A DNA stretch of 64,000 nt, taken from positions 6,819 to 70,818 of the forward strand of contig JBDRJY010000007.1 in assembly GCA_043814545.1 (NCBI GenBank), given 5' to 3'. Made by a program: the position numbers and the translations under genes. The stretch is from an archaeon (GTDB lineage Archaea > Nanobdellota > Nanobdellia > SCGC-AAA011-G17 > GW2011-AR17). The notes under the pieces were generated by a model, which did not search any database, had not been told where the DNA came from, and saw only the letters and a list, made by a program, of their open reading frames with translations. The stretch's first letter is position 1, and every line of letters begins with the position of its first letter. Of this stretch, positions 1,970 to 48,399 are shown in pieces.

Positions 1970-3460
1970 CTAATCAATAGGATATCTTAAGATAGCAGCA
2001 ATCCCACCTAATTGTTCTAACTGCTGACCTTCCATTGTATCAGTAGAAATAATTTTAACTTCGGTCCGAGAATTCTCTGCATCATCTTCCATTTTTTCAA
2101 TATAATCCTCATCTAAAGATTCAGATAATAATAAAGTTTCAACCGCAGCCATTTCCATAACTTTTTCAACTTGTTTTTTACCATAACTAACACGTTTATC
2201 ATCAGTTGACAACAATTTAAAAAATTTTTCCAAAATCTTTTTCTCTTCTATGATAGCCTCTTTGGACAAAATCTCCTGACTTTTGTTAACAAGCTCTTTC
2301 AATCCAAAATCGCCAGTATAACTTAAATCTTGTAAACCTAAGACTTTTAATTTAATTTGGTTATTCAAAAAATCGCCATTGTAAAAAGTTTCTTTGGTAG
2401 GCCCGGGACCGCCAATCAAAATACCTTTCAAAGTTTTCATCTCAAGAAACTCTTTTTGTACTGTCTCTGCTATACGCTTGTAAAAATCTTTAGCTGCACC
2501 TTCCCTGATACGAGCAAACCTTTGCGCACTGTTATGAACAATAAGACCTTCAGCAACAAAGTTTTTGTTAGCAACAGAGATGTCTATAAGATTAATCTTA
2601 ATTTGTTCATCAACTTCAATCTTTTTAATTTCTTTACCAGAACCATCACGGCCCAACAATAAATCACCAACTTGCAACTCTTCACTCGCTTTGGTCAAAC
2701 CGTCTAACAAGAAAAACAAATGATCTTTAGAAGCAGTAACAATTTCTTCAACATGAATTTTGTATATGTTTTCCGTAGGCTTAACCCATTTATCTAAAAC
2801 TTCGGAAGGTTTCAACGTTTTAGATTCAAAATCGTAACTTAAAACTTCATCACCAACTTCAACTTCTTCCAAAGAAAGAAACTGACCGTCAGCCATTGCA
2901 ATCTCAGTGTCAAATGCTAAACACTGCCCACCTGCCCTAGTTTTACCAGGCACACCCGAAGTCAAAGTTTGAAGTTCAACTATGTTCGTACCTTTCAACA
3001 AACCGATAGTAGCTTCACGCCTGTCAACCACAATCAAACCATACGTTTCTTTCACGTCAAGCATTTCACGTAAAATGTCTAACTGAAAAGTTTGGTCACA
3101 TCTATAGATTCGATTATTAATCGCTTCAGGCGGTTCTATGCTCCATACTTGTACATCTAGCTTACCTTCCTTGTCAGTAGCATTCCCTGCAAACGCTGCA
3201 AGACCATTGTCAGGAGTTTTCTTGAACAACCTTAAATGCCTAATCATCCGTTCAAGAGAATCAATAACATGTTTTTGTGTAGTTTTATCTTTAATATTAG
3301 TAGCAGTACCTTGCTCTTGCCCTAAATGATTAATAATTTTATTAATATCATAACCAGCAGGAATGTATACAGTAACTAGTTCTGTATGCCTACCACGAAT
3401 ATTTTCAAGTTTACGTACGAACTTTTTCAGTTTATGTTTCTGTTTAGGGTCAAGAACCAT
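1970..3460 (-). CDS. prf1: peptide chain release factor aRF1 (eRF1 family) carrying a mini-intein
   Basis: N-terminal domain has the TATNIKD (NIKS-like) motif. GGQ sits at residues 177-179, followed by a Cys-started insert that ends in HN. The host sequence then resumes as SAQRFARIRE, the conserved GGQ-S-xxRFxRxR context of eRF1/aRF1. Confidence 0.85.
   Translation of the reverse strand: MVLDPKQKHKLKKFVRKLENIRGRHTELVTVYIPAGYDINKIINHLGQEQGTATNIKDKTTQKHVIDSLERMIRHLRLFKKTPDNGLAAFAGNATDKEGKLDVQVWSIEPPEAINNRIYRCDQTFQLDILREMLDVKETYGLIVVDRREATIGLLKGTNIVELQTLTSGVPGKTRAGGQCLAFDTEIAMADGQFLSLEEVEVGDEVLSYDFESKTLKPSEVLDKWVKPTENIYKIHVEEIVTASKDHLFFLLDGLTKASEELQVGDLLLGRDGSGKEIKKIEVDEQIKINLIDISVANKNFVAEGLIVHNSAQRFARIREGAAKDFYKRIAETVQKEFLEMKTLKGILIGGPGPTKETFYNGDFLNNQIKLKVLGLQDLSYTGDFGLKELVNKSQEILSKEAIIEEKKILEKFFKLLSTDDKRVSYGKKQVEKVMEMAAVETLLLSESLDEDYIEKMEDDAENSRTEVKIISTDTMEGQQLEQLGGIAAILRYPID
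2531..2923 (-). other. mini-intein (131 aa, no homing-endonuclease domain) inserted between Q179 and S of the GGQS motif of aRF1
   Basis: Block A CLAFDTEIAMADG, with Cys1 encoded by TGT at 2921-2923. Block B IVTASKDHLFFLLDG (T..H). Block F/G NLIDISVANKNFVAEGLIVHN, with the terminal Asn encoded by AAC at 2531-2533. The +1 Ser is encoded at 2528-2530. Confidence 0.75.
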
Positions 3461-6366: not shown

Positions 6367-9300
6367 TCATAACTTTAAAATAATCCAGTCCAGAATAAAT
6401 CGAAACAACTTTACTACATAAAGTTTCAAATACCAAGGCTCTTTTTCTTGTTCTTCAACAATTTCTTCTTCTAATTCTTCACCTAAACTATCTTCTATTC
6501 CTTTTTCACTTTCATCAACCCCTAAAACTTCTTCTTCAGTTTCAGGTATTTCTTCTTGAGTAACAGGATAATTCACTGAACCTCCACCAGAAGAACTATC
6601 CGAACTTTGATCAGTGTTTGATAAGCCATTATCCAAATAAATTAAAACAGAAGTTGAATTAATATTGTTAAATGAATCATTAACAAAAACATATATAACA
6701 TGCGTTACAGTTGAACCGCTCGGGCTTGAAAATGTAAGACCAACCGTACCATTTCTAAACGTAACATTATTCCCACCATCTAAATTATACCAGTAACCTG
6801 AAACTTCATTATCATCAGTTGAATTCACATTTAAAGTTACATTAATAACATCACCAAAAGTAAAAGTCGTTTTTTGTAATGGAGAACTGATGTTTATGCT
6901 AGGTGGTACAGTTTCTGCCATTTGAATTTCAGATATGCCAATATCATAATAATCAAAATCTCCCGTACCAACATTAGGAATCCATAAGGCATCAACTCTA
7001 CTATTCCCTGCTTTATCATAAGAAACTGAAAAACTACTGTTTGCCGCATCTATTGCAGGTGAACTAATGTTAACAGTAAAATTTTTAATATTAGGCTGAA
7101 TAAACAAAGGATCACCATCAACAGCATTTGCACCAATGGTAGTCCCACTAACATTCGCAGTATTACCATACCAAAGATTATAATTTAATATTGTGTTAGC
7201 TGCTGAAGATCCATCAACAACTCCGATAGTGTTATTCGTAAAGATATTATTTTGAATTATAACATCGCTTGTAGTTGCACTACCACTTTCCAAATCAAGA
7301 CCATTAACATTGTTATAAAATACATTGTTAAAAACTTCCACAGTCCCTTCATCAAGATTAAATAACCTCATTGACTCAGCATTTTGGTAAAAAATATTGT
7401 TAAAAAACTGAATTTTTCCAGTTGTACTATCAGCAGTTTCATAAAAAATAATTCCTCCTGCATTACCATTGAAAGAATTCCCTTCAACCTTATTCACTCC
7501 ATCGCAAGCGTATAACCTTAAACCACGATTACTCGAAGAAGAACCTATCTCGTTAAAACTATTATTTTTTATTGTCAAATTTGTAACTGCCCATTCACTT
7601 AGTTCTATATGCCCCTCATTAATATTATCTGAACCATTAAAGAAATTATCTGAAATTGTTAAGTTTAACAAATTAAACCTTCGATTAGTATTATCAGATA
7701 AAAAATAAATGCTTTGCATATTATTAATAAACTTATTATTTCTTACAATACAATTATCAGAAGTTATTGTGTTATATATATCTCCACCTAAGTATAATGC
7801 AGAATGAGCATTGCTATCAGTACCGTTAAAGTTTCTAAATGTATTATTTTCTATAAAATATTGTGTACCATTTAAATCGTAAATAAGAATACCTTTTCCA
7901 TTAGTTGTTGAAAATCCTACACTGTTATCTATTGTAATATTATTATTGTAAATGTAAATTTTACCGCCTAAATTTGGACCCATATTTTGAGGCAAAATAC
8001 CTATCGCTGCAGAAGATGCACCAGCTCCCTGAAAATAATCTTCCAAACCATACCAAATATTATTTTCAATTATAATATAACCATCATCACCTAAATAATA
8101 ACTCAAAAATTTTAAATCTCCTGTATCAGTGTTACCGCCATGAAGTTCATGCTTAAACGTATTACCTTTAACAATATACTCTTGTATAGGATTACGGTCG
8201 TCAGTATTTCCGTGAGATTCCCAACCGTCCCAAATAGTAGAGTTAAAAACAAAACCGTAAATGTCTGCCGCATCAATCAACGAATGAGAATAAGCTTGAT
8301 TACCAGCAGCTTTTCCTGCCACCATGTTATAAAATATTAATCTTGTCGTTAGAATATGGGCAATATGTCCTCTATTATCAGAATAAAACTGTCTATGATT
8401 TCTAAAAATTATATCTCCATCCATATTATTTGTTTTTATTACACCATTAGCCACAACAGTACTACCAAACCTAAACTGTAAGAATTTTCCTTCACCACCA
8501 TCAATAACAACACCAGTCTTATCATCCAAGTCCATATAATATCTAGAAGTTTTAACTAACTCATAATCAACTGTACCGTTGGTAATATTAACATTTGTCC
8601 CAAAAGGATTTACATAAAGTATTTTTGTTGAATTATCAAAATAATAACTACCATCAGTATCATTAGCTTGCTGTACTGTATCATTCATTTTCGCTAAATA
8701 CCTGCAAGCATTTTGTAAAGACATGTTAGTAACATTACAACTTGCTAAAGTACGTGTATCATCTGCTGCCATCGTTCCAGTTGCTTGATAAATTTCACTA
8801 AAAGTTGCATTATGAATAAAACCAGTGTTAACAGCACCGTTAGTTGTCTTACCAAACAATTCTGAACCTGTTATAAGAACATCTGAATCTAAGGTACCAT
8901 CAGAAGCGTTTGCAGTAATAACAACCCAACCATCAGCAGCTAACTCATCATTAGTCATGGTACTCAGATTTAAGTAAGTAGAATTATCAATCCTAGTAAA
9001 CCCAGAACCGTTCGCACCAACAATCAAAGGTTCTTGATACCTTCCTTCGTCAATGTATAAAATATCTCCTGCACCAACTTCTCCAAAACCGTCACCCCAT
9101 TGAACAACACTTAAGTTAGGCCATGCACCGTCCCAAGAATGTGGGTTTGTCCCGTCGCCACTAGACGAAACAAAATAACTTGAAGAATCTGTTGAAACAT
9201 TAAACGTAATTGTATGGTTTAAGAACGGCGTATCTCTTTCATCTTCAGTATTAAAAGTTATGTTTAAACTTAAATTCGTTGTAGTTTCAGGAAAAGTAAA

Positions 9301-10308
9301 AGTGTAATAATCTGTATCATTAACTATTGTCACACTTGAAGGAAACCAAGAAACATTATAATAAGAAAAGATAAACGTCATGTTAGTTCCAGCATTAATG
9401 TTATTCGCACCAAAACTAAAATTTGCTTGCGTATAACCAGCTGCAAAATTAAAATTAGAACCGTTATTCAAAACTAACTCAGCTGCAGGTTTAAAATATT
9501 TAGTTTGATTATTATATAAATCAATAATCTCTGCTTCGGTCAAACTTCTGTTAAAAACTATTACTTCGTCTATTGAACCATTAAACTCTCTTAATCCTGC
9601 AGTGTTAGAACCAAATACCATATCAGCTGTTAAACCGTTAGGTCCCTCATTTACTGTTGTATCTGAAGCTAAAAGAACACTATTACCAAACAAATAACAA
9701 CCTGACTCATTATATAACAATGCATAATGGTACCAAATATCTACAGTCAAAGAATAAGTAGATTTTATAGCTGAACAATCGTTCGAACCATTAGGTGAAG
9801 AAAATTGAAAATAAAGTCCGTTCGTATCATAAGCCTGTATCAATGAAACAGCTCTATCGGCAGAACTTGTTTCTTGATCTATTATAGAAGCAAAATTATC
9901 TCCACTCGAAGTATCACCTCTTGACGTTACCCAAAGAGAAATTGTATAAGTATTGTTTGATGTAATAACATTACCAACATTAATATTTTCATCAATACCG
10001 TCAAAGTGCGCACATTTATCATTAAAACAATTTGAAGCATTAACATAAGCACCACCAGTACCTAGACCATCTTTATTCCTATAACTCAAATCATAATGGT
10101 TAGTAAGTACTGTATCAACTAAATCAGGTTCAAAGTTCCAAAAACAAATAATGTCAGAATCATTTAACGCTATATGGCTCCAGTTTCCGCTTTTAGTAAC
10201 ATTCAAGGCTTCATCAAAATCTGCAACTTCTAAAGACGAAACTAAAGTGATTAAAAGAATTAAACTAATTATACTAAATGTTACCTCTTTAACAAAACGC
10301 ATCTTCAC
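6367..10308 (-). CDS. giant secreted surface protein (1313 aa): LamG-like jelly-roll domain plus parallel beta-helix repeats, rich in N-glycosylation sequons
   Basis: Sec-type signal MKMRFVKEVTFSIISLILLITLVSS. The LamG_3 signature is ..FNGSIDEVIVFNRSLTEAEI. The middle has repeated NNxIxxN beta-helix rungs (NNNITIDNS, IENNTFRNFNGT, IVRNNKFINN). The C-terminus has an acidic EEEIVEE tract and a hydrophobic end. There are many N-x-S/T sequons. Confidence 0.65.
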   Translation of the reverse strand: MKMRFVKEVTFSIISLILLITLVSSLEVADFDEALNVTKSGNWSHIALNDSDIICFWNFEPDLVDTVLTNHYDLSYRNKDGLGTGGAYVNASNCFNDKCAHFDGIDENINVGNVITSNNTYTISLWVTSRGDTSSGDNFASIIDQETSSADRAVSLIQAYDTNGLYFQFSSPNGSNDCSAIKSTYSLTVDIWYHYALLYNESGCYLFGNSVLLASDTTVNEGPNGLTADMVFGSNTAGLREFNGSIDEVIVFNRSLTEAEIIDLYNNQTKYFKPAAELVLNNGSNFNFAAGYTQANFSFGANNINAGTNMTFIFSYYNVSWFPSSVTIVNDTDYYTFTFPETTTNLSLNITFNTEDERDTPFLNHTITFNVSTDSSSYFVSSSGDGTNPHSWDGAWPNLSVVQWGDGFGEVGAGDILYIDEGRYQEPLIVGANGSGFTRIDNSTYLNLSTMTNDELAADGWVVITANASDGTLDSDVLITGSELFGKTTNGAVNTGFIHNATFSEIYQATGTMAADDTRTLASCNVTNMSLQNACRYLAKMNDTVQQANDTDGSYYFDNSTKILYVNPFGTNVNITNGTVDYELVKTSRYYMDLDDKTGVVIDGGEGKFLQFRFGSTVVANGVIKTNNMDGDIIFRNHRQFYSDNRGHIAHILTTRLIFYNMVAGKAAGNQAYSHSLIDAADIYGFVFNSTIWDGWESHGNTDDRNPIQEYIVKGNTFKHELHGGNTDTGDLKFLSYYLGDDGYIIIENNIWYGLEDYFQGAGASSAAIGILPQNMGPNLGGKIYIYNNNITIDNSVGFSTTNGKGILIYDLNGTQYFIENNTFRNFNGTDSNAHSALYLGGDIYNTITSDNCIVRNNKFINNMQSIYFLSDNTNRRFNLLNLTISDNFFNGSDNINEGHIELSEWAVTNLTIKNNSFNEIGSSSSNRGLRLYACDGVNKVEGNSFNGNAGGIIFYETADSTTGKIQFFNNIFYQNAESMRLFNLDEGTVEVFNNVFYNNVNGLDLESGSATTSDVIIQNNIFTNNTIGVVDGSSAANTILNYNLWYGNTANVSGTTIGANAVDGDPLFIQPNIKNFTVNISSPAIDAANSSFSVSYDKAGNSRVDALWIPNVGTGDFDYYDIGISEIQMAETVPPSINISSPLQKTTFTFGDVINVTLNVNSTDDNEVSGYWYNLDGGNNVTFRNGTVGLTFSSPSGSTVTHVIYVFVNDSFNNINSTSVLIYLDNGLSNTDQSSDSSSGGGSVNYPVTQEEIPETEEEVLGVDESEKGIEDSLGEELEEEIVEEQEKEPWYLKLYVVKLFRFILDWIILKL

Positions 10309-13427: not shown

Positions 13428-15674
13428 TTAAGGTAAAGAATACCCTGAGCTAAATATTGGCACTGTTTCAGATTGATAGGTGTATAACACAGAGATAGCA
13501 TAGTTTTTACCACCATACCTTCTATCATCCATTTCAACAGAACTCCAATCAGATAAACTCTCATCAATATTCCCAGAGATATAATAAGTCGTAGGATAAG
13601 CTCGATACCTGCTACAACTTGAACCAGCATCAACTGTACAATGATTTTCAGGGTCAGAAACTTCGTGGCAAGAATTGTCACGATTAACCAACCAAGAATT
13701 AGTGTCAAGTAAAGCATATGCCCAAGCATCAACTATTGAATAATCAGCTTCTAAATAAGCTGCAAATTTCTTTGAAACTTTTTTAGAATGATAAGTGTTA
13801 GATACTAGACTACCATGCATGCCTGATAAAGTGTGAAGACCTGCAAACACACTGCCACTATCACTGGTAGTTGTATACCTTTGCCTTCCATAATCACCTT
13901 GACAATATACGACAGAATTACTTAAACAAGAAAATTGTGCCAGATATTCTAAATCTTTTTCACCTAACTGCGATAAAAAGTAATCGTATAAAGCCGAAGA
14001 TTTATTTTCATAAAGGTAAATTGGTTGATCTTCTGCCCATACTGAACCTAAATAACCGTGACCAAATAAAAATAATAAATCAACATCATCAGCATAATCG
14101 TACGAATCTTCAACAAACCTATTTTTGTAAGATAAATACTTATCATAGTCAGGCCAATAATCCTTAAACTCATCACGAAATTCCTTAGCTGCTGTTTCAA
14201 ACAAATCTTCATCAGTCGAATAATACACTGCAAACTTTGCACCAGCTACGTCTCCAGGGAGCGGCTCACCGGATTGAGGAGGCTTTGTTGTTGATACTGC
14301 GCCTGAAAACTTACACGTACCATGAACACAAACGCCACCGTCATCATCATAATCAAAACAATGTTCATCAATTACACAAGGAAACTTACCATGTCCTAAA
14401 GATTTGTCAACGTAATACATTGGAGTTAAAGAAGTCGAAGTAACTACTGGCGAATATGCGACAAGGTTACCGTCTTTAACTAATGTACCATGACAAGTTA
14501 CTGTCGGCAACAAAAGTTCTTGTGATTGAAAATATGTAGATTCACAATTAGTTACATAAATATTATGCGACTCACCTGCTTCATAAGCCATAACTTCAGT
14601 AATTTCTTTTTTTAATTTTTCAACATTTTTTAACAGAACCTCTTCCTTTTTTTCCGTTGAAAGCACCCAGTTACGTAAGCTTACGCCTGTAACTTCTCCT
14701 GTAAGAGAATTAACTTCAACTTGAATTAAAGAATTTGATACTTGCCTGCCACCAACCAAACGATAAAAACCCGCAGTTTGAAGCACAAAAAAACTGCCTT
14801 CATCAGTTACATCTTTAGTATAAATTATTGCAGCAGTTTGACGTTGATCTAATTGCGTTTGCAAATCTAATTTGTTTGATTGTAAAAATTCTTCTGCTGT
14901 TTGCCAAACTTCATTTTCTTGTAAAGGTTCTAAACTTCCTTCCCTACTAGCTAAAGAAGATCTTACTGCCAACAATTCTTCATCATCAGTTTCATTCGGA
15001 GCAAAATAAACAAAAGATGCGTCAAGATTACCTTCGTTATCTAGCATTACACCAATTTTACTTTTATCTTCTAAAGTTTTTATTTCTTTTACACCAAACG
15101 CTGAAGCCAATTCAACCATTTCTTTTTCAGTTTCTAATCTTGCCGTCGATGACAAGGTAATAAGAACATTATCATCACTATTTAAAATTTCTACCAAATC
15201 TTCTTCAAAACCGGAATAAAATTCAACTTTAGGCGATTCATCTTCAAAATTAAGTTTAGCTAAATTTTCAATTAGAAATAATTTAAGTTTATTAAAAAAC
15301 CCATGAGGCTCAATTCCAATTTGACTATTTATGTATAACCTCTGTAACATTAAACCTTGATTTTCAGTTGACAAAAAATCAGTTAAATCTTTTTCAGCAA
15401 CTGTTAAAGTAAAATCTATGTCTTTAGTATTAATAAAATTAATTTTATCATCTTCAAAAATAAATTGTAAATTTAAACCACAACCTTCAACAACAATTTC
15501 TACTTGCATCCCATCTAAAAAAAAGTTTAAAGGTTGTATATGAGTCAACAATTGTTGATTTTCCATAATCAAACTTTGCGTTTCATCTGCCAAATCATCA
15601 CATGTTGCGGATACGGTAAAAGAAAACAGAATTAAACATACAATAAACAAAATTAAATTTCTTTTTACATTCAT
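13428..15674 (-). CDS. secreted protein (748 aa), last gene of a surface-protein operon. C-terminal part has a His-Gly ... Ser-Cys pair reminiscent of clan CD cysteine peptidases
   Basis: Signal MNVKRNLILFIVCLILFSFTVSA. Overlaps the upstream gene by 4 nt. Contains the segments LLFLFGHGYLGSVW and AQFSCLSNS. The peptidase assignment is speculative. Confidence 0.5.
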   Translation of the reverse strand: MNVKRNLILFIVCLILFSFTVSATCDDLADETQSLIMENQQLLTHIQPLNFFLDGMQVEIVVEGCGLNLQFIFEDDKINFINTKDIDFTLTVAEKDLTDFLSTENQGLMLQRLYINSQIGIEPHGFFNKLKLFLIENLAKLNFEDESPKVEFYSGFEEDLVEILNSDDNVLITLSSTARLETEKEMVELASAFGVKEIKTLEDKSKIGVMLDNEGNLDASFVYFAPNETDDEELLAVRSSLASREGSLEPLQENEVWQTAEEFLQSNKLDLQTQLDQRQTAAIIYTKDVTDEGSFFVLQTAGFYRLVGGRQVSNSLIQVEVNSLTGEVTGVSLRNWVLSTEKKEEVLLKNVEKLKKEITEVMAYEAGESHNIYVTNCESTYFQSQELLLPTVTCHGTLVKDGNLVAYSPVVTSTSLTPMYYVDKSLGHGKFPCVIDEHCFDYDDDGGVCVHGTCKFSGAVSTTKPPQSGEPLPGDVAGAKFAVYYSTDEDLFETAAKEFRDEFKDYWPDYDKYLSYKNRFVEDSYDYADDVDLLFLFGHGYLGSVWAEDQPIYLYENKSSALYDYFLSQLGEKDLEYLAQFSCLSNSVVYCQGDYGRQRYTTTSDSGSVFAGLHTLSGMHGSLVSNTYHSKKVSKKFAAYLEADYSIVDAWAYALLDTNSWLVNRDNSCHEVSDPENHCTVDAGSSCSRYRAYPTTYYISGNIDESLSDWSSVEMDDRRYGGKNYAISVLYTYQSETVPIFSSGYSLP

Positions 15675-18600
15675 TTTTTCTTTACCAGATCAGACGTTTT
15701 CTTAAACGAAGATTCCAATTGTTGGTCTAACTTAGAAGGTTTAAACTCTTGTTTCTTAGCAGTAAACAATTTTTGTGGATTCACAGGCGTAAGTTTTCGC
15801 TTCGTGTTAAATGTTTGAGACTTTTGTTTCTTTTTATAATATATGTAACCTAAATAAACTAATGCTAATAACAAAATCAGGAAAACTAAAATATAAAACC
15901 AAGGTAAAGCAAAACCTTCTTCACAATCTTCAGGACAATTGTTTTCAGTTTCACCATAAGAAGAATCACACCTTTCATTCGGACACAAAGGCATACTATC
16001 AGTTGAATCATCTAAACCATCAGAATCTGAATCCACTTTATACGCACTCGTCCCAATAGAACTTTCATACTTATCACTCAAACCGTCACCGTCAGAATCT
16101 TTGTCAATATCACCAACACCTGAACACGAAGGACATGATGAACCGCCACAATCAACACCGTCTTCGTTACCGTTTCGTAAACCATCATTACATGAAACAC
16201 TTTCACAAGGTTCACAAATAGAACCGCCACAATCAATCTCTTCTTCATCCTGGTTCATAACTGTATCATAACAAGTTGGAAATAAATCGTCAGTAACTTG
16301 ACAATTTTCGTCGTCATTATCCACATAACCGTCACAATCATTATCCAAACCGTCGTTGCAAACTTCTGGGAAAGATTCAATATCATCTTCACAATCACTC
16401 CACGAACCGTTAACACAGAATTGTATACCAGCAACACAAATACCTACGTCAACGCCACAAGTTTGATTCATTCCTTCAGAACAACCACAATTTTCATCAA
16501 CTTCGCCATCACAATCATTGTCTACATTATCACAAACTTCATCACTCCCACCACTGTAAGCAGAACCCGAACAGATTGACCATAAACCATTATCACAATA
16601 TTGTACACCCGACGAACACGCACCAACATCAGTGCCACAGTTTTTAGTTTCGCCAATTGTACAAACACAACCTTCATCAGTTGACCCATCACAATCATCA
16701 TCTAAAGTGTTACAATATTCAGTTTCAGCATAAACAGCACCTTCACAATCACCCCAACCACTATTACTACAAGTTTCAACACCGTACAAACATATGCCTA
16801 TATCAGAATCACCGCATTGTTGCGTATCCTCGTCGGTACAAGCACAACCTTCCTGATCTACACAGTTAGGGTCAGTACAATCAAAGTAACCGTCACAGTC
16901 GTTGTCAAGACCGTCGTTACAGGTTAACTCTTGTTCTTCAGTAGCTTCACAAGTTTCAGCACAATGGTCTTGGTCGTAAGGATCACCAGTCCGGCCACAA
17001 ACAGTATAATCACAATAACTTTCACTAATCCATTTATAATTGTTACACCATTCACCAGCATAAGTATCACAAGTATTTTGCGAACAAACATCAGTACCAC
17101 AATCATAATCTTTGCTACCACAATTCAAACAATAATCTTCAGTTGTCCAACCGTTACTATCACAATATAAATTTTGACCTACATCACACGAACCTTCAAC
17201 ACAACTTTCATAATCAGCATCAACACCACCACAGTTTTGTTCATAATAAGCATAAACCCATTCGCCAAAGCTACAATACGAATTAGATTCAGTGTCACAA
17301 TATCCAGCCAAACATTCACCATACCCAGAACAATCATCATAATCATAAAGTGAACAAGTGTCGCAATAATCAGTCGAGTCCCAACCGCCGTTATGGCACC
17401 ACATATCAGAAGCAACATCACAAGCATTTTCAACACAACCTGACGAGTTAGCAGGATCTTCAGTTATAGATTCACAATATGTATCATCTTCGTCGCAAAG
17501 AACTTGACAATCCGAATCTTGCGCACCGCAAACATGACAATAGTTGTCAGAAACTTGGTTACCTAAATCATCGCACCAAGTGTTATCTTCCAAGTTACAT
17601 ACACCAGGAGTACAAGCACCAAGACAATCAGAATCTTCAGCATCAGTATCACCGTCGCAATCATTATCAATGTTATCTTCACAAGTGCCAAAAGTTTCTT
17701 TTTCAGCGCAAACTAAAAAATCGCCGGAATTATATTTGAAACAATCAAAACCTTCACCGCAAACCCATGAAGTGTACGAAGTATATTCACCAGCATCTTC
17801 ACTTTCAACAGTGTACGAACATTTCACATCTTCATCATACATCTCCACTGTACAAAACGTTTTATTATAACATTCGTTGTTAACCGGTGGCACATCACCG
17901 TCACCGCAAACGTAAAGATTCTTTGTACAAACACCACCTTCATCAATTTGTTCATCACAATCATTATCTTTTCCGTCGCAAATTTCTAAAGCGTAAGGAT
18001 TTATTGAAGGGTAAGCATCATCACAATCTAACTGTTCATAGGTACACTCAGAATGTTCGAACGCACCAAACCCGTCGTTATCTTCATCATAACAACCGCC
18101 TAAAGGATAAACTTGCATCTTCATAAAAATATTAAAATCAGAAGGTTGCACAGCGTCAAAACTAATTGACTTCACTGGTAATGAACGAGTAAATTCAAAC
18201 CCTGAAAACGAATCATAAAATCCGCCTTCTTCAGTATCACCGTTAACAATAATTTTGTTACCTGTTGAATCATCTTCACTTGACAATGCAAACTGATACT
18301 GGCAACCGTTATACAACTCGACAGTAAAATCTCTTATTTTGATTGAACTAAAAGTTTCATAATCAGCATTGTTATAACAATGTTTATCTTTATCATTTTG
18401 TGTAACACAACAATCAGGACGACAATAACCAGCAAATTCAATATGTCTTCTTAACGGTTTATTAATTTCATACTCATAATGATAATAATTTCCACCTGAA
18501 GGATACAACCCAATTTCAGTAAACGGCGTTGCATCATTTATTGCACATTCAGACTCAGGATCAACCCCTTCTTTTGAACAAACACCTTCACTAATAATCC

Positions 18601-19606
18601 AACCTTCATTAAAATCTACCAAGTTATCTGGGACTTCAAGCTTAATTGTTTCAATATCAGAATTATCATTTTCAATTGAAGAAATTTCTCTAACTTCTGA
18701 ATCAGTATACGAATAAATGTTCCAATCGTAAACATCAGAATCGTAATCTAAAGTATACTGTGCATTTGCGCCAACCTGACCATAACATTGGTAAACACCG
18801 TCACCGTCAAGATCTTCACAGGTAGGATCAATTTCATCAATGCGCGGACACGAAATATCTTCAGGCACACAGTCAAGGTCTAACGAATCAATACAATCAT
18901 TCTCGTCCCCTAACTCTTTTCCAGGATAACAACAATCTTGGTCACAAACAGGAAGCACGCCAGGTGTATCACTTTCAGAAATAGGATAACAACCATTATC
19001 AGGAAGATTATTTACTTGAACATCAGCGCAATCAGGATCATAATTACCAGGACAATACGTGTTACATACACCATCTTCGTCAATGTTACACCCCATTGGC
19101 ACGTCACAAAAGATAAATTCCAAATCACTACCGGCTTGAATTTCGGCGTCGTCAGGGTTAGTCATGAAATGTTGCCAGTCACCGCAAGTATGATACTCAC
19201 ACTCTTCCTCGTCGATAATTATCGCATAATCTCCAAAAGAATCAACTTCCGCATGTAAGGAAAAATAATCTTCGTCTTCAAGGTAAGAACTATCTATTTC
19301 GACCCATTCACCATTTTCATATTTGGCAAACAAAACATCACGTTTATCTTCGCACGGCACTCGATCTGTTTCATACATGTAAGGATAAGCTGCAGGCAAA
19401 ATTATTGTAAGACCATTCGGCACTTCGTCAGCTCCTGAAAAACGAAAAACATTACCAATAACAAGGTTACAATCATTATAACCAGACAAAACACAGTCAG
19501 GAATTTCTTGGATAGTATAACCTTCATTATCCGCAGTTGCATTTAAAGAAAATATTAGTAAACATAAAATTAAAAGTAAAAAAAGTTTAGCACGCAAAAC
19601 ATACAC
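15671..19606 (-). CDS. giant Cys-rich surface protein (1311 aa) with MopE-like CxDxxDNDCDGxxDE repeats and a C-terminal TM anchor
   Basis: Signal peptide, then repeats such as CNDGLDNDCDGYFDC, CNTLDDDCDGSTDEGC, CDNVDNDCDGEVDENC and CEDNIDNDCDGDTDAED. These match the Pfam 'putative metal-binding motif' (MopE-type). The C-terminus is LPWFYILVFLILLLALVYLGYIYYKKK, a TM helix plus a basic tail. Confidence 0.65.
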   Translation of the reverse strand: MYVLRAKLFLLLILCLLIFSLNATADNEGYTIQEIPDCVLSGYNDCNLVIGNVFRFSGADEVPNGLTIILPAAYPYMYETDRVPCEDKRDVLFAKYENGEWVEIDSSYLEDEDYFSLHAEVDSFGDYAIIIDEEECEYHTCGDWQHFMTNPDDAEIQAGSDLEFIFCDVPMGCNIDEDGVCNTYCPGNYDPDCADVQVNNLPDNGCYPISESDTPGVLPVCDQDCCYPGKELGDENDCIDSLDLDCVPEDISCPRIDEIDPTCEDLDGDGVYQCYGQVGANAQYTLDYDSDVYDWNIYSYTDSEVREISSIENDNSDIETIKLEVPDNLVDFNEGWIISEGVCSKEGVDPESECAINDATPFTEIGLYPSGGNYYHYEYEINKPLRRHIEFAGYCRPDCCVTQNDKDKHCYNNADYETFSSIKIRDFTVELYNGCQYQFALSSEDDSTGNKIIVNGDTEEGGFYDSFSGFEFTRSLPVKSISFDAVQPSDFNIFMKMQVYPLGGCYDEDNDGFGAFEHSECTYEQLDCDDAYPSINPYALEICDGKDNDCDEQIDEGGVCTKNLYVCGDGDVPPVNNECYNKTFCTVEMYDEDVKCSYTVESEDAGEYTSYTSWVCGEGFDCFKYNSGDFLVCAEKETFGTCEDNIDNDCDGDTDAEDSDCLGACTPGVCNLEDNTWCDDLGNQVSDNYCHVCGAQDSDCQVLCDEDDTYCESITEDPANSSGCVENACDVASDMWCHNGGWDSTDYCDTCSLYDYDDCSGYGECLAGYCDTESNSYCSFGEWVYAYYEQNCGGVDADYESCVEGSCDVGQNLYCDSNGWTTEDYCLNCGSKDYDCGTDVCSQNTCDTYAGEWCNNYKWISESYCDYTVCGRTGDPYDQDHCAETCEATEEQELTCNDGLDNDCDGYFDCTDPNCVDQEGCACTDEDTQQCGDSDIGICLYGVETCSNSGWGDCEGAVYAETEYCNTLDDDCDGSTDEGCVCTIGETKNCGTDVGACSSGVQYCDNGLWSICSGSAYSGGSDEVCDNVDNDCDGEVDENCGCSEGMNQTCGVDVGICVAGIQFCVNGSWSDCEDDIESFPEVCNDGLDNDCDGYVDNDDENCQVTDDLFPTCYDTVMNQDEEEIDCGGSICEPCESVSCNDGLRNGNEDGVDCGGSSCPSCSGVGDIDKDSDGDGLSDKYESSIGTSAYKVDSDSDGLDDSTDSMPLCPNERCDSSYGETENNCPEDCEEGFALPWFYILVFLILLLALVYLGYIYYKKKQKSQTFNTKRKLTPVNPQKLFTAKKQEFKPSKLDQQLESSFKKTSDLVKKK

Positions 19607-24417: not shown

Positions 24418-24535
24418 GCGGGGGTGCCGGAGTGGTCAAACGGGCCAGAAATTAACAATAATTGTTGTTAGTTGGTCATGCTTAGGACCTGGTGGCTTAG
24501 TGCCTACGCAGGTTCGAACCCTGTCCCCCGCACCA
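24418..24535 (+). tRNA. tRNA-Leu (anticodon TAG), class II, with ~31-nt intron (24450..24480). CCA encoded
   Basis: Acceptor GCGGGGG/CCCCCGC plus ACCA. Long variable arm TGGCTTAGTGCCTAC. T-arm CAGGTTCGAACCCTG. Removing 24450-24480 gives the anticodon stem-loop CCAGA-CTTAGGA-CCTGG with U33, TAG and G37. The intron boundary can slide by about 1 nt. Confidence 0.7.
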
Positions 24536-29993: not shown

Positions 29994-30818
29994 CTACAAT
30001 AACTTCTGTTTTTTAACATAAAGAACATAAAATGTTCTAAACAATCCTAACAGTATTACAAAGATTAATACAAAAATAATACCTAGCACTATACCAACTA
30101 TAGACTGTCCCACTAAAGAAACTAATAAACTAAAATAAAAAAATAAAAATAATAAAGTTAAAAATAAGAACAGTAAAAATAATGGAAACAATTTAAAAAA
30201 TTTCTTAAAACTTATTTGAACAAGTTTACCAAAATTAGATAAGTCAAGTTTTGTCAAAACAGCATAACTCAAAAACATTACATACAAAACAAAAGCTAAC
30301 AAGATTAAACCTAAAACTAGTTTAGAAAAAAAGTAAGGGACTTCTTCAAACAATACCGATGTTATCATGTCAAGAACCATTTTCAGTAACAAAGTTAATA
30401 TTAAAATTCCTGGAAAACTTAAAGCAAAAAACTTATACATGTGCTCAGAGTTGTAAAACTTTGAACTTTTAATTAAGTTAAAACTAAAACCTTGCGAAAG
30501 ACACCATAAAATAAAAAAACCTATTGGTATTATGATATAAAAAAACACTTGGATTTTAGCAGTGATAGGGTATAACTGTTCTAACAAAGTTGTAAACTGT
30601 AACTGTGCCATTGTTGCGTTTTCAACGAAAAGATTTTGTACTGTACTAATCTGGTCTTGAAACAACTGTATCTGGACAAAATACGTTTTTAATTTAAACC
30701 TAGAATATAAAACTAGTAAAGAAAGGAAAAAAACAAAGGCTAAATCTAAGACTAAAAACTTCCACCATTTATTAAAATACAATTCAAAGGATTTTTTTAT
30801 CAAAGATTTCATTTTCAA
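29994..30818 (-). CDS. polytopic membrane protein. Last gene of the giant-protein operon
   Basis: Multiple hydrophobic helices. Its start overlaps the stop of the 2745-aa gene by 4 nt. Confidence 0.5.
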   Translation of the reverse strand: MKMKSLIKKSFELYFNKWWKFLVLDLAFVFFLSLLVLYSRFKLKTYFVQIQLFQDQISTVQNLFVENATMAQLQFTTLLEQLYPITAKIQVFFYIIIPIGFFILWCLSQGFSFNLIKSSKFYNSEHMYKFFALSFPGILILTLLLKMVLDMITSVLFEEVPYFFSKLVLGLILLAFVLYVMFLSYAVLTKLDLSNFGKLVQISFKKFFKLFPLFLLFLFLTLLFLFFYFSLLVSLVGQSIVGIVLGIIFVLIFVILLGLFRTFYVLYVKKQKLL

Positions 30819-33800
30819 GCATTAGTACAATAAAATTTCGTAGTCCCTTCAATAAGAGCAAGTTCACAATTTCCAATATCACATATATCATTAGCGCAAG
30901 CTTGAGCAAGCATAGTCGAACCACCATAAACAGATTCAAAGATCAAACTATTATAACTATAACAATAATCTAATCCAAAGTCATAACATGAAAAACATCC
31001 GGAAGCACCTTGTTCAGTTGTACCTAAAAAACAACCATCAATCGCCACACATTTGTCATAGGATGTCCTTGTCCCATCATTACAATCTTCACAAGAAGAA
31101 CAATCTATTTCACCTACACCTGTCAATTGTTCAACATCATAAACATTTAAACCAGCATCCTGGCACGAAGCTTCATCACCTTCTTCTAAATAAAAATAAT
31201 CGCAGCCTAAATTACAAGGATCTTCCTTACAAGTCAACTCAACACTGGAATAAAGCGTCCCTAAATCTGAATAAGTAAAATCAAATACTTTAGTATTATA
31301 ATCATTACAATAATTAATCTCGCTACAATCGCCACACTCCGGACCAGTTCCCCCTTGATACAAAACACAATCGCCGTAATCCTTCATACATATATCATAA
31401 ATTGTTGCAATAGAAGTATCTGCTTGCCAGTATTCGTAAAGTGAATTATAATTTTCACAAACTTTTTCTTCACAAACATTATTTAATTCATCCCAAATAC
31501 ATTCTCCAACACCACATGCGTCAAGCCCACATTCTTTCTGTGCAAAAGATTCATCTAAAACATACCATTCTTCATAATCATAAATACCGTCGTAAGCATA
31601 AGTTGAATAATCAACACAAACGTCAATAGCGTTACAATCTTTGCAATACGATTTACCACCCTCATCACCTAAAAAACATTGACCTCGGTTATAATAATCT
31701 TGATGACACTCGTCAAACGCTTCATTATCTCCTGAAAAACAATCTTTGCCACAATCAGTACAATCGTATTTAGTAACTGAAACACATTCACCACCAAAAT
31801 CTAAACTAGAATCTTCACGCCACGAACAAGTGCCAAACCCGCACGAATCCATTTCACATTCTTTCTGTGCAAAATATTCACCGTCGTACTTATTATCATA
31901 CGCATAATTATAAGTTTCACAATCAGTAATAGCATCGCATGAACGACAATAAGCATTATCGTTATCAAAAGGAGATACAATCAAAACACATTCACCATTT
32001 TCATAATCACGGCTATGACATAAGTCAAAAGCGTTTTCATTTCCCTTAACACAATCATTACACTCTTCACAACTTAAAGCAGTCTTACAACTACCACCAG
32101 CGTTTAAAGTATCATCCTCTTCCCAATAACAAGGACCTTTACTACAACTATCCAATTCACACTCTTTTTTGTAAAAATGTTCATTATCAGTCGCAACACC
32201 GTAATAAGTATAATGTGACATAGAATAACTTTCACATGAAGTTATACCTTGTGAATAAGTCCAGCCCCAATTAACAAGACCAAACGTCCAACTATCACCC
32301 AAACAACTTTTACATTCAGGTTCGCCATTAGCATCATCGCCAAGGAAACAAGCAGTACCTTCAGTCGTACCGTCGTCAGAAAGGTAAACCGTGTCAAGGT
32401 CCGTCGCATAATAACCTACTTGATGACATTTGTCAAATATTGCATTTGCATCTAAAGCAGTGTTAGCATAATCACAAGTTTCATATTGTATTGTAGTAAT
32501 CTCAGGCACACAGTTATGATTTTCGCAAGTGTAAGCTATACCACCATAATAAGCAACATCCAAATCTTCATAATAAGTACCACAATCAGCAGTCGTGCTA
32601 CAATAGTCAGGATAAACATCTTCCTCTAAAGTATTTTCAAGATAACAATAACTGTTTTCACCTTCAGAAAGACATTCATAACCACTAGGACAACCTGTCG
32701 ATGGATAGTCGCAACTTATCCTAGAATCAATAGGGTAACAAGAGTGATACTTACATTCATATTCAATATCTTCATTATTATATACTGTACACTCAGAATC
32801 AACATCACACCAAGTTACAGCAACTCCTGTAAGTTCAAACGTTTGACAATAACCTGCAACACAAACATAATCAGTATTATCAGAACAAAGATTCTTTTCG
32901 TCGCATTCAATCAAACAAACTCCGCTTAAACAATCAGAACCGTCCACACACGTGTTGCCATAGTCACATTTAGGGAACTGTGTTTGTGCATTAGCGTTAA
33001 CATCTTTAGTAGGATTATAATCATAACATAAACCACTAATACAAATTTGGTTGGCAGGATCAGGACAAGGATTAGCATCGTCACAATCAGCAAAACAATA
33101 ACCATCTAAACATTCGCCACCAAGACAATATCCATCATCACATCTTGGTACAGTTATCGAACCAAGCTCTTCAGTAAAACTACCAATATCATCAGTCTTC
33201 AAACAATAATCAGATTTGATACATTCGTAGTCAATGGTAGGACAATCTTCATCTTTATCACACTCAAGCCAACAATCATCACCGTAACAAAGAGCATCTT
33301 GTTTTACACAACAAAGTTCAGGGTCAGAATTACATAACTTGGGCGAACACGAAGCAGAAACATCACACGAACTATAATATTCCCAAATACCATTTTGACA
33401 TTTGCCAACAGTAAGAGACACACCAGTAAGAGACACACCATAATAATCACTAATAATATCTAAGCACGCATAATCTTGATTATCATCAGAACAATCGCTG
33501 CCATATTCAAAATATCCTACATCAACTTGAACAACTTCTTCTTCGACAACAGTTGTAGTAGTTGTAGTAATATCATCTGCAGCTTCAAGCGCAGCTTCTT
33601 CTACGTCAGACAAAGGTTCTAAACCTTCATCTTCACCCATCAGAGTTTGCGTATCAGTTGTCTTCATACCACCCATTGTTTTGAACAACTGTCCGATTTT
33701 GTAAAGAGACTGCAATTCTACATCTGGAGATAAAGTACGCTCATACAAATCATTAAAGGCATTAACCAACTCCACCATTTCATTCATTGTTGTAGCTGTT

Positions 33801-36800
33801 CCAACTGCTTCTTCAAGAGTATCTAACATGTTCACGCTATCGTCTAAATCTAAAAGATCGTCAATGCCTAATTCATCTTTAATTTCTTCAATGCCAATAG
33901 CTTCAAGTTCAGTTGAAACAGTTTCGTACCTTTGAGTATCCTGAATAGTAATTGTTCTTGAATCAAGCCAACATCCGCCTAAGCTACGACCTTCACTATC
34001 CTCACCACAAGTTCCAACATACAACCAGTCGTTAGGGTTAGTACCTGACCCTGGATTATTAACTGCACATATTCTAATTAAACCAGTTGTTAACATGTCA
34101 ACATCATAAGGAGTAGTAAAACTTAACAAACTCGGGCTTGTGCGCGGAGCGCTAGGAACACAATCAGATTCTGAATCAATTTCGCGGCTTAACTCGTCTT
34201 GCACTAACAAGTCGTTCAAGTAATCTAAACTGAACGCAGTGCTAACCGAACCAAAACCACAATGTTCAACACCGTTTATCCTGACACAAATTTCATCATA
34301 ACCTTCAGTCGTTGCACAATCAACAGTATAATCTGCCATCTCGCCTTTCGCAATTGTCGACGAACGTTTACCACAAGTTTCAGTCACGTAGTAAGGCCAT
34401 AAAGTTCCAGTAGAACTTTTCAGGTAAACACTATACGTAGCATCTTCATCTTCGCCAGCATAAATATGATAATAAGATTGGTACGCTTCTTGTTGTTGAG
34501 TTTCAGCATAAGGTTTTACAGTTAAAAGAGCTGTGAACTGTGGCGGACTTTCAGGCTCAGTCAACTGCGTAAACAAGTCACCGAACTCAGGCATCTTACC
34601 AAAAATCGCTTGCTTACAAATCAAAGCACCTATCTCTTCAGTTGACCTTCCTTGGAAAGCTGAAAACGCTGTCTGAGCATAATCTTGTGTAAAATATTCA
34701 ATCGAGTTAGCAGCATTTTCAAAACTTGTCTGGAAAGTTAAATATTCGCCACCGCCTTCCTGTTGACCAAACACTTTTTCTGATAACAGTTCTAGGATAC
34801 CACCGTTAGCGTTAAAAATATTTATCAGTTCCCTAGCAATCATTTCACAAACGAAAACTGACCTAATCTTATCACAAATTCCGACAGACGTACCTTCAAA
34901 CTTAGCAGCTTCAAGACATTCAACATACCCTTCCATGAAAGACTGTATGTTTTGTAAACCTGCCAATACGCCAGTAAGACATACAGGCACCATATCTCCA
35001 CTGCCCCAAGGTAAAACTATCGAACCAATCAAACCTGTTTCAACTACGTTATTCACGTTCCATCTTCCACCTAAGTTAAACCGAGAAGTAGGACACATTA
35101 CAGGATCACATACATTAAACATAAGTTTACAATCGCCAGGGTTCATTACATCGTAACATGTCATTGACGCGCCAGGATCAATTGATTTTGCTTTACCTGA
35201 ACTAATCACAAAACTTGTACCTTCAATTGAAACAATTTCACCATCACTTTTACCTTCCATTTTTCTTATCGCTCGTTCAACTGACGACCTTAACCGATTA
35301 TACGTGCTATGTTCTAACTCTAACTGGCTACTATGCATAATTAAAACATCATCACCTGTACACAACCGACCGTCAGCGCCAACGTTCCACAATTCTAAAG
35401 TGTCAGGCGACCCGTCTTTATAGAAATCTAAGATTTTCACAAACTCGCCATTATTAGTTGGCACACAATATGGTTTATCATCACCATAACGCTCAATAGG
35501 AGGTATACCTGCATAATCAGTACGCGTTGTAAAACTTGAAAACGCTGTAACTTGCGCAACATAAAGCTTGTTAGTATCTTTATCAATGTAAACTTCGCCT
35601 TGCTCAGTCGCAACAACTGCAGTCAAATCATTTTCATAACTAGAAGCAATACGATCCATATCCTTAGATATTTCTTCAAGCTCAGCACCAGTAGCAGTTT
35701 TATTTTTATTTTCAAGATAAGTCTGATATTCTTCAACATCTAAAGGCGTTAAAACTAAAACTCCTGATAAAGTGTCAGCATAAATATTATTATCACTTTC
35801 TTTTTTGTAAACTGAAGTTAAAACATCAACAGTATCACTATTAATATACCTGAACTCAGACGGTGTAACTTCAGGTTCAGTTAACGCTTGATTATACAAG
35901 TTAGTAAAAATTCGATTTTGTTCGTCTTCATGTTCACTAAAATAATTTTTCCATTCTTTTGATTTAGTTGCATTAACAGCAGTGTTACAAGCGTCTTGCT
36001 TTTCCTTATTAGATAACGTAAAACCTGCAAGGTTAGTATTGGTTTCAGCTTGAAGATTATATTCTTGCGTGCCTGATAACGAATTATAACTTCTAGTTTT
36101 TGACATACCTGTCCAGTAAGCATGATTACGCAAAGCTTCCAAGTCATGGAACTCACTCGCACCTAAATACTCAACACACGTGTTCATGTCATCATAACCA
36201 GTTGTAAGATTCTTGTACCATTCTTGCGACAAATAATTATCGTCAGTAAACTGGTTGTTCACATCTGATACAACAGTTTTCGTGTCAGCTATCTGTTGTG
36301 TTATCTCGGACGAATGTGTAGCAATACAATCATCAAACGTTTGATGTAATTTACCTGAACCAGAGTTAGCTTGACAGTAAGCATACCATCCACTTTGACC
36401 ATCCTGGCCACGCATTACAAAACTTCTAGCTTGCGAAGTTGAAAATCCAGATAAGAATGAATTTTTCACTGTTAAGAAACCAAACGTTGCAAGGCAAACA
36501 GTTTTCCAAGTCTTAACCAATTTTTCTAAAGTATCAATAGTATTTTGCAACTTCTCAATTTGCTGCTGAGTTTTATTTATTTTTTGATCAATATTTTTCG
36601 GTGTTAAATTAAACGCAGCTTTGTCGACAGTAATATGCATTGAAAAGTTTGACCTGCTAATCAATTCACGACCAGTACCAGGTATGATTGAAACATGCGC
36701 ACGTTTATACAACTCAACATCATCAACGCGTACATTATAACCGTCAACAGATTCAGTATCACTTAAACTAATTGTTTTTGTTGAAAACGTTGGACTTACT

Positions 36801-44200: not shown

Positions 44201-44632
44201 AGTATAATCTACGCTTATTGTATAAATTGAGGAGTTTACATAGTTAGAACCTGCGGTTACATTTGTTTTGTTGGCAGCAGCACACATCCAAGTAAAGTTG
44301 CCTTCAGGCAAAGATGCATTAAAGATAAATCCAGTGCTACTTACAACTGCAGTACTGTTTGATACATTAACCATAAAAGTTCCGTTAAAATTGTGCCAGA
44401 AGGTTAAGTTAACAATACCGTCAGTAGCAGTTACACCAGCCCATGTTACATTACATGTAAAATTCTGACCACTTCCATTTAAGCCACTAATATAAATGTT
44501 ATTTCCTGGTGAAATCACATCAACTGATTGTACACCCTGCGTCTGATACTCTGCTATTACATAAACTGCACCTAGTACAATTAATAATACAAACAGAAAT
44601 AATATTCCTCTTTTTATTCCCCTTTTATTCAC
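41261..44632 (-). CDS. large surface glycoprotein candidate (1123 aa), extremely rich in N-x-S/T sequons, with a C-terminal TM anchor and KKKK tail. First gene of the operon
   Basis: N-terminus MNKRGIKRGILFLFVLLIVLGAVYV. About 17 sequons in the first 170 aa (NGS, NFT, NVT, NLT, NGT, NVS, NST, NAS...). C-terminus ..AGMAWWWWVVIGLGIAIVAAAVVIPLVLKKKK. Confidence 0.65.
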   Translation of the reverse strand: MNKRGIKRGILFLFVLLIVLGAVYVIAEYQTQGVQSVDVISPGNNIYISGLNGSGQNFTCNVTWAGVTATDGIVNLTFWHNFNGTFMVNVSNSTAVVSSTGFIFNASLPEGNFTWMCAAANKTNVTAGSNYVNSSIYTISVDYTSPNITVTLPANNTLYTNNNNQNFQIRASDARTSNVSMSCWYRYTDGINWSNNISVPCDVNTLFPAVNNESTNLSIWFYANDSLGNANGSQSFRRVKFGRNSAAPVVTLNSPVNGYNFTNTTNNYLTFNCSASDASGLYSLTFMSNATRGTSWGGNFTESLVADDPYGVDAITFETNISNMADGTYIWNCLAADIDINTTKATTSNSTYATNYTFTVDTMAPAVNEVLLSDYYVQNVTQVTIYVNVNDSGTGIHNVTAEGTLLTRVDDNNYTGTITLANVSSAYTVDVNASDYMGYVVNYVGQSFIIDDVAPNFVSFINRTANFGNLSVNVSYKMNISMNFSETMDINSFNTATVRLFDTNVTGATRLDGHFYYNVSNASEIANNGSIIDYISANTTGFLEMNPYRNLVPGVTYTLLLTGMTDNASNALAQAVYYYFKVKEDCDENGTLDAIDPDDDNDGVMDTSDFLTGNITNVATNVKLNMSVDWNISSVNVTSLTGAASIVRFYNGSNVSLASDVANGSGTYNHSAYIIEFNYTFGPTKEIDLRNVSIYWHNRTSYGMVWTYGLYPEANATTIYIYNSTNYSNNKNVAGICLKDGSYESPYNFSSNCTASDELYLRCPGENVGSSQFTAHKYNCSSHIFNNQQFFKVTGFDGDVLARQMDDTAYPRIVEISATADASNTANWTLLVKTDETATCFWSTTDVAIASMTRFLGNGLNHSYSQVFTGEIAGTWYVRCNDTENNIMTTSNSTTYSYVTTAAAAGSSSTSSTGGNGVDVVVSSATTLSRIIAGESAVVTFTDKALIVSGISLTTNTDVENVRVSVTKEIERQSDVNKDAPGDLYYYITVTKTGLEDSEIDEAKVTFHVTREWLADNNHKSSDIILYRYDNGVWNELKTKKLYQDDDDVYFEATSDALSYFAIVAKVAAAPTTEPEAETEPELIAEEPIIEAGMAWWWWVVIGLGIAIVAAAVVIPLVLKKKK

Positions 44633-48291: not shown

Positions 48292-48399
48292 TAGCCCCGC
48301 GCGGATTCGAACCGCGGTCTCCGCCTTTCCCTTGAAAGATATCAATTAAGACATCATCCATCCAAAGGGCGAAATGATTGGCCACTACACTACGGGGCT
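48292..48399 (-). tRNA. tRNA-Gln (anticodon TTG) with canonical 35-nt intron after position 37
   Basis: Reverse complement is AGCCCCG...GTAGTGGCCAATCA..TCGCC-CTTTGG[ATGGATGATGTCTTAATTGATATCTTTCAAGGGAA]A-GGCGG-AGAC-CGCGG-TTCGAAT-CCGCG-CGGGGCT-A. The exon CCCTT pairs with intron AAGGG, as in a bulge-helix-bulge. Confidence 0.75.

Follow-up and report, generated by a model that had tools for sequence, protein, structure and literature searches.

Structurally solved class-1 mini-inteins, among them gp41-1 (cyanophage-like), the Npu and Ssp DnaB inteins and that of Mtu RecA, are HINT-fold domains of ~130 amino acids (aa) without an endonuclease, and they share Cys1, a block-B His, a block-F Asp, a C-terminal His-Asn pair and a +1 nucleophile. 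Their hosts are DNA-replication and repair proteins. In the main text of their 2016 survey of inteins from bacteria and archaea, Novikova et al. describe inteins mainly from proteins of replication, repair and nucleotide metabolism, note few in core components of translation and transcription, and have aIF2 among the archaeal hosts (PMC4760082). The aIF2/IF-2 inteins covered there interrupt a conserved archaeal translation factor, namely a P-loop GTPase in its nucleotide-binding region. Here we analysed a locus where a conserved archaeal translation factor is likewise interrupted, but with the class-I release factor aRF1 as host and its GGQ motif as the place of insertion. The gene is encoded on a 64,000-nt stretch of archaeal contig JBDRJY010000007.1 (GCA_043814545.1, positions 6,819–70,818 of the forward strand), hereafter the window, which is AT-rich (33.4% G+C). 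We found blocks A, B, F and G of a mini-intein in the 131-aa insert of this gene, and we assign a probability of roughly 0.93 to the insert being a canonical class-1 mini-intein of the aRF1 GGQ loop that has lost its endonuclease, is carried largely vertically and must be spliced out to yield an active release factor. As far as the literature searched goes, host and insertion site are new; the mini-intein itself is fully conventional in mechanism.

The open reading frame (ORF) that holds the insert starts with ATG and continues in a single uninterrupted frame, with no sign of the frameshift that a preliminary description of this DNA, made from the sequence alone, had named as a possible objection. 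Judged by its sequence, the ORF encodes aRF1, which in archaea is the only class-I release factor. It scored 411.1 bits against the NCBIfam equivalog model TIGR03676 (aRF1_eRF1; cut-off 234.7), and Pfam eRF1_1, eRF1_2 and eRF1_3 all exceeded their gathering scores, which gives the three-domain eRF1 architecture (eRF1_2 at aa 310–399 and eRF1_3 at aa 403–495 of the precursor). Its best phmmer matches in the PDB were archaeal aRF1 and eukaryotic eRF1, and domain N carries the stop-codon-recognition motifs TNIK (aa 54–57) and YRCDQTF (aa 119–125). When the insert is deleted in silico, 365 aa remain, in which GGQSAQRFARIR is unbroken, as the preliminary description had proposed in identifying the host as an aRF1 of ~365 aa. 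No second aRF1-like ORF was found within the 64-kb window. The parts of the host gene are as follows.

1970–3460, minus strand: aRF1 precursor ORF, intein included, 496 aa plus stop; one contiguous ORF matching TIGR03676 and the Pfam eRF1 domains.
2924–3460, minus strand: N-extein, aa 1–179, comprising domain N and the initial portion of domain M and ending in GGQ; aligns to 4af1 residues 11–187.
2924–2932, minus strand: GGQ peptidyl-tRNA hydrolysis motif, aa 177–179, with Gln179 as the intein −1 residue; read from the sequence.
2528–2530, minus strand: +1 Ser, aa 311, which opens the C-extein and is the putative transesterification nucleophile; aligns to the post-GGQ Ser of solved aRF1.
1973–2530, minus strand: C-extein, aa 311–496, comprising the rest of domain M and domain C; aligns to 4af1 from residue 188 and to 3agk residues 183–370.

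The exact insertion site is directly visible in alignments with solved structures. Against aRF1 of Halobacterium (4af1) and Aeropyrum (3agk), phmmer returned two collinear stretches with the insert between them. The first (query 5–180) ends at residue 188 of 4af1 or 183 of 3agk, with intein Cys1 placed on the Ser of the chain, and the second picks up with query 311 at that identical Ser (188 and 183, respectively). Since the two stretches meet at one Ser, the insertion is clean and lies between the GGQ Gln and Ser; homologues of 361–367 aa are collinear across the site as well. The insert occupies aa 180–310 (window 2531–2923, minus strand), in frame between the Gln of GGQ and Ser+1, and reads CLAFDTEIAMADG...ASKDHLFFLLDG...LIDISVANKNFVAEGLIVHN, with KDHLFFLLDG in its interior and the C-terminal residues NFVAEGLIVHN, flanked by PGKTRAGGQ before and SAQRFARIRE after. 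The coordinates and flanks given earlier for a 131-aa insert between GGQ and Ser thus match exactly, and the alignment bears out the clean insertion that had been anticipated.

Membership of the insert in the intein family is seen in both sequence and fold. On the insert alone, Pfam Intein_splicing scored 43.1 bits (cut-off 35.8, E 5e-11), and the NCBIfam models intein_Nterm and intein_Cterm scored 25.8 (cut-off 24.5) and 15.8 (cut-off 15.6), so all three profile hidden Markov models (HMMs), whose failure had been entertained as a reason to abandon the intein assignment, lie above their cut-offs. No LAGLIDADG, HNH or GIY-YIG domain was detected in the insert in a Pfam scan at E ≤ 1, in agreement with the earlier reading of blocks A, B, F and G without an endonuclease; at only 131 aa, the insert has no room for one. 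We aligned 44 diverse aRF1-site inteins that are 32–58% identical to the window intein (alignment A1), against which its parts can be laid out.

2531–2923, minus strand: mini-intein, 131 aa, class-1 type, without homing endonuclease; Pfam and NCBIfam models, AlphaFold2 model and Foldseek.
2885–2923, minus strand: block A (CLAFDTEIAMADG), with Cys1 at 2921–2923 (Cys180 of the precursor); Cys1 invariant in A1.
2708–2749, minus strand: block B (EEIVTASKDHLFFL), with Ser65-x-x-His68 at 2720–2731, a variant of TxxH; S65 and H68 invariant in A1.
2549–2593, minus strand: block F (NLIDISVANKNFVAE), with Asp114 at 2582–2584; D114 invariant in A1.
2531–2548, minus strand: block G (GLIVHN), with penultimate His130 and terminal Asn131; V129, H130 and N131 invariant in A1.

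Seven of the 131 columns of A1 are invariant (C1, S65, H68, D114, V129, H130 and N131), and six of these seven are the canonical class-1 splicing positions, i.e., the nucleophile of block A, the (T/S)xxH of block B, the Asp of block F and the His-Asn pair of block G. A further set is conserved in at least 90% of A1 (D67 and F71 in block B; N121, F122 and A124 in block F). The block B motif reads S65-K-D-H68; throughout the aRF1-site family Ser stands in place of Thr, and the His is invariant. An AlphaFold2 model of the intein built with A1 (predicted local distance difference test, pLDDT, 97.4; predicted template-modelling score, pTM, 0.88) has an all-beta HINT fold of 14 beta-strands, and a Foldseek search of the PDB with this model returned HINT-fold proteins only (probability 1.00, template-modelling (TM) scores 0.80–0.91). 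The mini-inteins among these matches (TM 0.80–0.86) include gp41-1, NpuDnaB, SspDnaB, Mtu RecA, PhoCDC21-1 and others. Of these, gp41-1 is 30% identical to the window intein (phmmer E 7.8e-4). The window intein differs from the solved class-1 mini-inteins in its host, the GGQ loop of aRF1 instead of a replication or repair protein, and in having Ser where they have Thr in block B.

Relatives at the same site were collected by a whole-protein search of database clusters at the 90% identity level, which gave at least 120 clusters with an intein at the GGQ site. Among the matches listed, 120 of 120 clusters carry the intein there, and each has the GGQ/C junction with Gln at −1, Cys1, the terminal HN and Ser+1. 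Most of these inteins are small (124–134 aa in 114 of the 120 listed), and the remaining six, of 420–504 aa (P0095, P0103, P0109, P0110, P0116 and P0118), contain a LAGLIDADG_3 domain with both LAGLIDADG-type motifs. LAGLIDADG-containing aRF1 inteins were also found at genomic loci L006, L010–L012, L014–L019, L023, L025 and L027. In the large alleles an endonuclease region of 290–370 aa stands where the window intein has the short loop LLGRDGSGKEIKK, and the splicing halves of a large intein and the window mini-intein are recognizably homologous by BLASTP (N half E 6e-13, C half E 3e-08). The two kinds of allele therefore share an identical insertion point (GGQ/C...HN/S) and homologous N- and C-terminal splicing halves; they differ in that the large ones have their own LAGLIDADG_3 domain, sometimes preceded by HTH_3, whereas the window allele would be an endonuclease-less derivative. 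A Cro/C1-type helix-turn-helix domain (HTH_3) lies directly upstream of LAGLIDADG inside the inteins of P0103, P0116, L006, L018 and L023, and is not present in others such as P0095.

A search with the exteins only recovered close relatives of ~59–69% identity and 361–367 aa in which GGQS is unbroken. In NCBI these empty-site proteins bear the name 'peptide chain release factor aRF-1'; they come from Nanoarchaeota, Woesearchaeota and Nanoarchaeia. As DNA, an empty site reads for example ...GCAGGTGGGCAG/AGTGCGCAAAGG..., where the slash marks the insertion point. Alleles with an endonuclease, mini alleles and empty ones thus coexist at one site. The preliminary description had also considered that homologues might carry a comparable insertion that is not an intein; none was found among the homologues listed, each of which has either the same-site intein or a clean empty site. 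Among the proteins recovered with the exteins, three without an intein (P0192, P0204 and P0213; 363–365 aa) have GGF where GGQ is otherwise universally conserved (e.g., ...PGKVHAGGFSQQRYARLR...), and these could be altered or paralogous DPANN release factors.

The aRF1 intein is widespread in DPANN archaea. It is present in hundreds of public sequences derived from metagenomes, and in some of these it includes a homing endonuclease. A scan of GTDB species representatives, which is a sample and not a census, gave at least 600 pattern matches and returned 44 loci; among these 44 listed loci, at least 24 hold aRF1 genes with GGQ/C. They are labelled Woesearchaeota, Nanoarchaeota, Pacearchaeota, Aenigmatarchaeota and Iainarchaeum, and include the complete genome of Ca. 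Forterrea multitransposorum (CP045477.1, locus L015) and a metagenome-assembled genome labelled 'uncultured archaeon'. Another two of these aRF1 genes, with an HTH and LAGLIDADG intein at the GGQ site, bear the label 'uncultured Methanosarcinales archaeon' (L018, CAZFJK010000001.1; L023, CAYFJX010000001.1). Their G+C content is 36–37% and their exteins are DPANN-like, so this label is worth checking; the observations suggest mis-binning, mislabelling or transfer beyond DPANN.

To place these inteins among HINT domains in general, we searched 1.84 billion representative proteins exhaustively with a profile, which yielded 20,893 HINT-containing proteins. On per-domain rescoring against the family profile, aRF1-site inteins scored 107–132 bits versus at most 84 bits for the best domain in any other host, and the aRF1 inteins are therefore a sequence family of their own. 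Tandem HINT or BIL-like arrays and ubiquitin-BIL proteins made up most of the next-best hosts. One free-standing 134-aa HINT protein (P0333) scored 111 bits against the aRF1-intein profile, level with genuine aRF1 inteins, and retains none of the catalytic residues (C1 is replaced by L, SxDH by SPGM, the block-F D by S and VHN by VIS). Its gene lies downstream of an intein-free aRF1 with intact GGQS, at a distance of 1 nt (L045:103–1603, a 1.7-kb contig of Logan SRR6240789), and a metagenome scan for further copies found only one near-identical contig (L046, Ga0210057_1112204). P0333 may be a former intein that was domesticated next to the gene it once occupied, and this dead copy next to an intein-free aRF1 hints at a HINT–aRF1 relationship that goes beyond parasitism.

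The residues present, read together with established intein chemistry, allow the likely course of splicing to be laid out. A precursor of 496 aa would be translated, in which Cys1 (aa 180) would attack the Gln179–Cys180 bond in an N–S acyl shift assisted by Ser65/His68 of block B and Asp114 of block F. The hydroxyl of Ser+1 (aa 311) would then take over the N-extein by transesterification, Asn131 would cyclise with the help of the penultimate His130 and release the intein, and an O–N shift would rebuild the native Gln–Ser bond to give the 365-aa aRF1 with GGQSAQRFARIR intact. The conservation of all catalytic residues argues for such autocatalytic excision with extein ligation. In eRF1 and aRF1 structures, the GGQ loop is the part that must enter the peptidyl-transferase centre. 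Because a 14-kDa HINT domain would sit at the tip of the loop bound for this centre, the unspliced precursor should be inactive, and efficient splicing would therefore be obligatory.

Several points weigh against this account. The single aRF1 copy is a result for the 64 kb analysed, so that obligatory splicing is inferred. In block B, Ser takes the place of the Thr found in most inteins, and a block-F position often occupied by His is Lys in the window intein; neither deviation is a known block on splicing. The picture of vertical versus horizontal transmission developed below is approximate, given the quick neighbour-joining tree and the biased sample behind it.

Besides being retained because its deletion is unsafe, the mini-intein could in addition act as a post-translational switch, with splicing that depends on the Cys1 thiol sensing redox state, temperature or another cue and so setting the level of active aRF1 in small-genome DPANN archaea. 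We regard this as unlikely; a large clade with mini-inteins only, in all of which the catalytic residues are intact, is compatible with it, and so is the dead HINT copy encoded next to an intein-free aRF1 in L045.

It is very unlikely that the HINT domain is a permanent, unexcised insertion, i.e., a dead or exapted intein with which aRF1 works in place. Some HINT domains do lose splicing, as the family relative P0333 without any catalytic residue illustrates. However, the splicing residues are invariant in all 120 listed clusters despite a mean intein identity of ~46%, and invariant splicing residues on such a diverged background are the signature of selection for splicing. The insert also occupies a loop that is required inside the peptidyl-transferase centre.

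Domains of the BIL and PT-HINT type occur in variable proteins, many of them secreted or toxins, and their typical reaction is cleavage instead of splicing. That the insert is such a cleavage-only BIL or polymorphic-toxin pretoxin domain is extremely unlikely, although several lines of evidence point in that direction: Pfam PT-HINT (PF07591) scored 37 bits (cut-off 27.7), the top Foldseek matches are the BIL domains of Tetrahymena (BUBL BIL2, 6y75) and C. thermocellum (2lwy; phmmer E 5.7e-6), both with TM 0.91, the nearest profile relatives outside aRF1 are tandem HINT and ubiquitin-BIL proteins, and NCBI uses the product name 'polymorphic toxin-type HINT domain-containing protein'. Against this, Intein_splicing outscores PT-HINT on the insert alone, domain scans of the ORF returned no toxin, secretion or RHS architecture, and both flanks are collinear aRF1. 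The position inside a conserved, essential motif and the +1 Ser nucleophile are features of inteins and not of BIL or PT-HINT domains, and endonuclease-bearing sister alleles occupy the identical site. On domain content, the PT-HINT match reflects HINT homology only and the ORF does not qualify as a toxin module. The GenBank name of the window aRF1 (MFH1455779.1), which is the toxin-type name just given, is therefore a misannotation, an artefact of HMM-based naming; many homologues are called 'hypothetical protein', and an intein in the gene thus leads to the misnaming of an essential marker gene.

The probability that the insert is an artefact of assembly, binning or gene calling (a chimeric contig or frameshifted pseudogene) is negligible: the source is indeed a metagenome-assembled genome, but the ORF is uninterrupted, the intein matches the host gene in composition, and the same architecture recurs in at least 120 independent clusters (NCBI, JGI, ENA and Logan assemblies) and in at least 24 GTDB species representatives, one of them a complete genome.

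For the favoured class-1 mini-intein, the history of the allele was approached by comparing intein and extein divergence. Across 111 mini-intein alleles, pairwise identities of intein and extein are correlated (Mantel r 0.76, p 0.001), and the intein diverges faster (mean pairwise identity 46% versus 64% for the extein). In the window gene, the composition of the intein (33.8% G+C; 26% at third codon positions, GC3) is close to that of the extein (35.6% G+C; GC3 27%), which speaks for a long stay in this gene. A recent horizontal acquisition by the source genome was considered and rejected, as compositions are equal and distances correlate. On a neighbour-joining extein tree, intein presence and absence required 31 changes versus ~70 with shuffled labels; one large clade has mini-inteins only, and endonuclease-bearing alleles are dispersed among empty ones. 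This tree was built quickly from a sample biased to top hits, and its numbers are to be read as tendencies and not as counts.

These patterns are consistent with a homing cycle in which an endonuclease-bearing intein would invade the site and become fixed, the endonuclease would be lost, and a splicing-competent mini-intein would persist vertically over a long time. The window allele may derive from a LAGLIDADG-bearing intein of the kind still present at the identical site in related archaea. Having no homing endonuclease, it cannot move on its own. Mostly vertical carriage would be expected because an imprecise deletion in GGQ would be lethal and only exact loss tolerable.

Full-text literature searches turned up no paper on an intein in aRF1 or eRF1. 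A release factor is not mentioned as an intein host in the main text of the Novikova et al. survey, its supplementary tables aside (PMC4760082), nor is eRF1 or a release factor mentioned in the main text of a 2023 paper on inteins of Anaeramoeba (PMC10710043). The remark in the preliminary description that aRF1 is not among the standard hosts of inteins accordingly stands as far as these texts go, with the qualification that the aRF1 intein is not rare and its mechanism is conventional; such sequences are already public, with precomputed intein Pfam hits. The result adds a translation-termination factor to the hosts of inteins, clearly interrupted where an essential protein is most constrained, and the GGQ site across DPANN lineages (endonuclease-bearing, mini and empty) forms a natural series for the study of the homing cycle. 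It also has practical consequences, as hundreds of misnamed aRF1 genes can make this marker look absent from DPANN genomes and distort inferences on completeness and metabolism, and these mini-inteins, a compact (~130 aa) and diverse family with Cys1, Ser+1 and a Gln at −1, are a possible source of new splicing tools.

Elsewhere in the 64-kb window, no second intein or other HINT domain was detected with the family HMM or with a general HINT HMM for which 199 diverse domains were used. MCM is among the commonest archaeal intein hosts; the MCM replicative helicase of the window (678 aa, 56137–58173, minus strand) is intein-free. Two Rfam tRNA matches, at 48292–48399 (minus strand; 46 bits, 108 nt) and 24418–24532 (plus strand; 38 bits, 115 nt), are long against the 71-position model and were not called by ARAGORN; these tRNAs probably contain introns. 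Five ORFs are very large, at 30815–39052 (2745 aa), 41261–44632 (1123 aa), 39049–41049 (666 aa), 6367–10308 (1313 aa) and 15671–19606 (1311 aa), all on the minus strand. They have no Pfam match, or match only Laminin_G_3 or a MopE-type metal-binding motif, and may belong to the large surface proteins that typify DPANN archaea.

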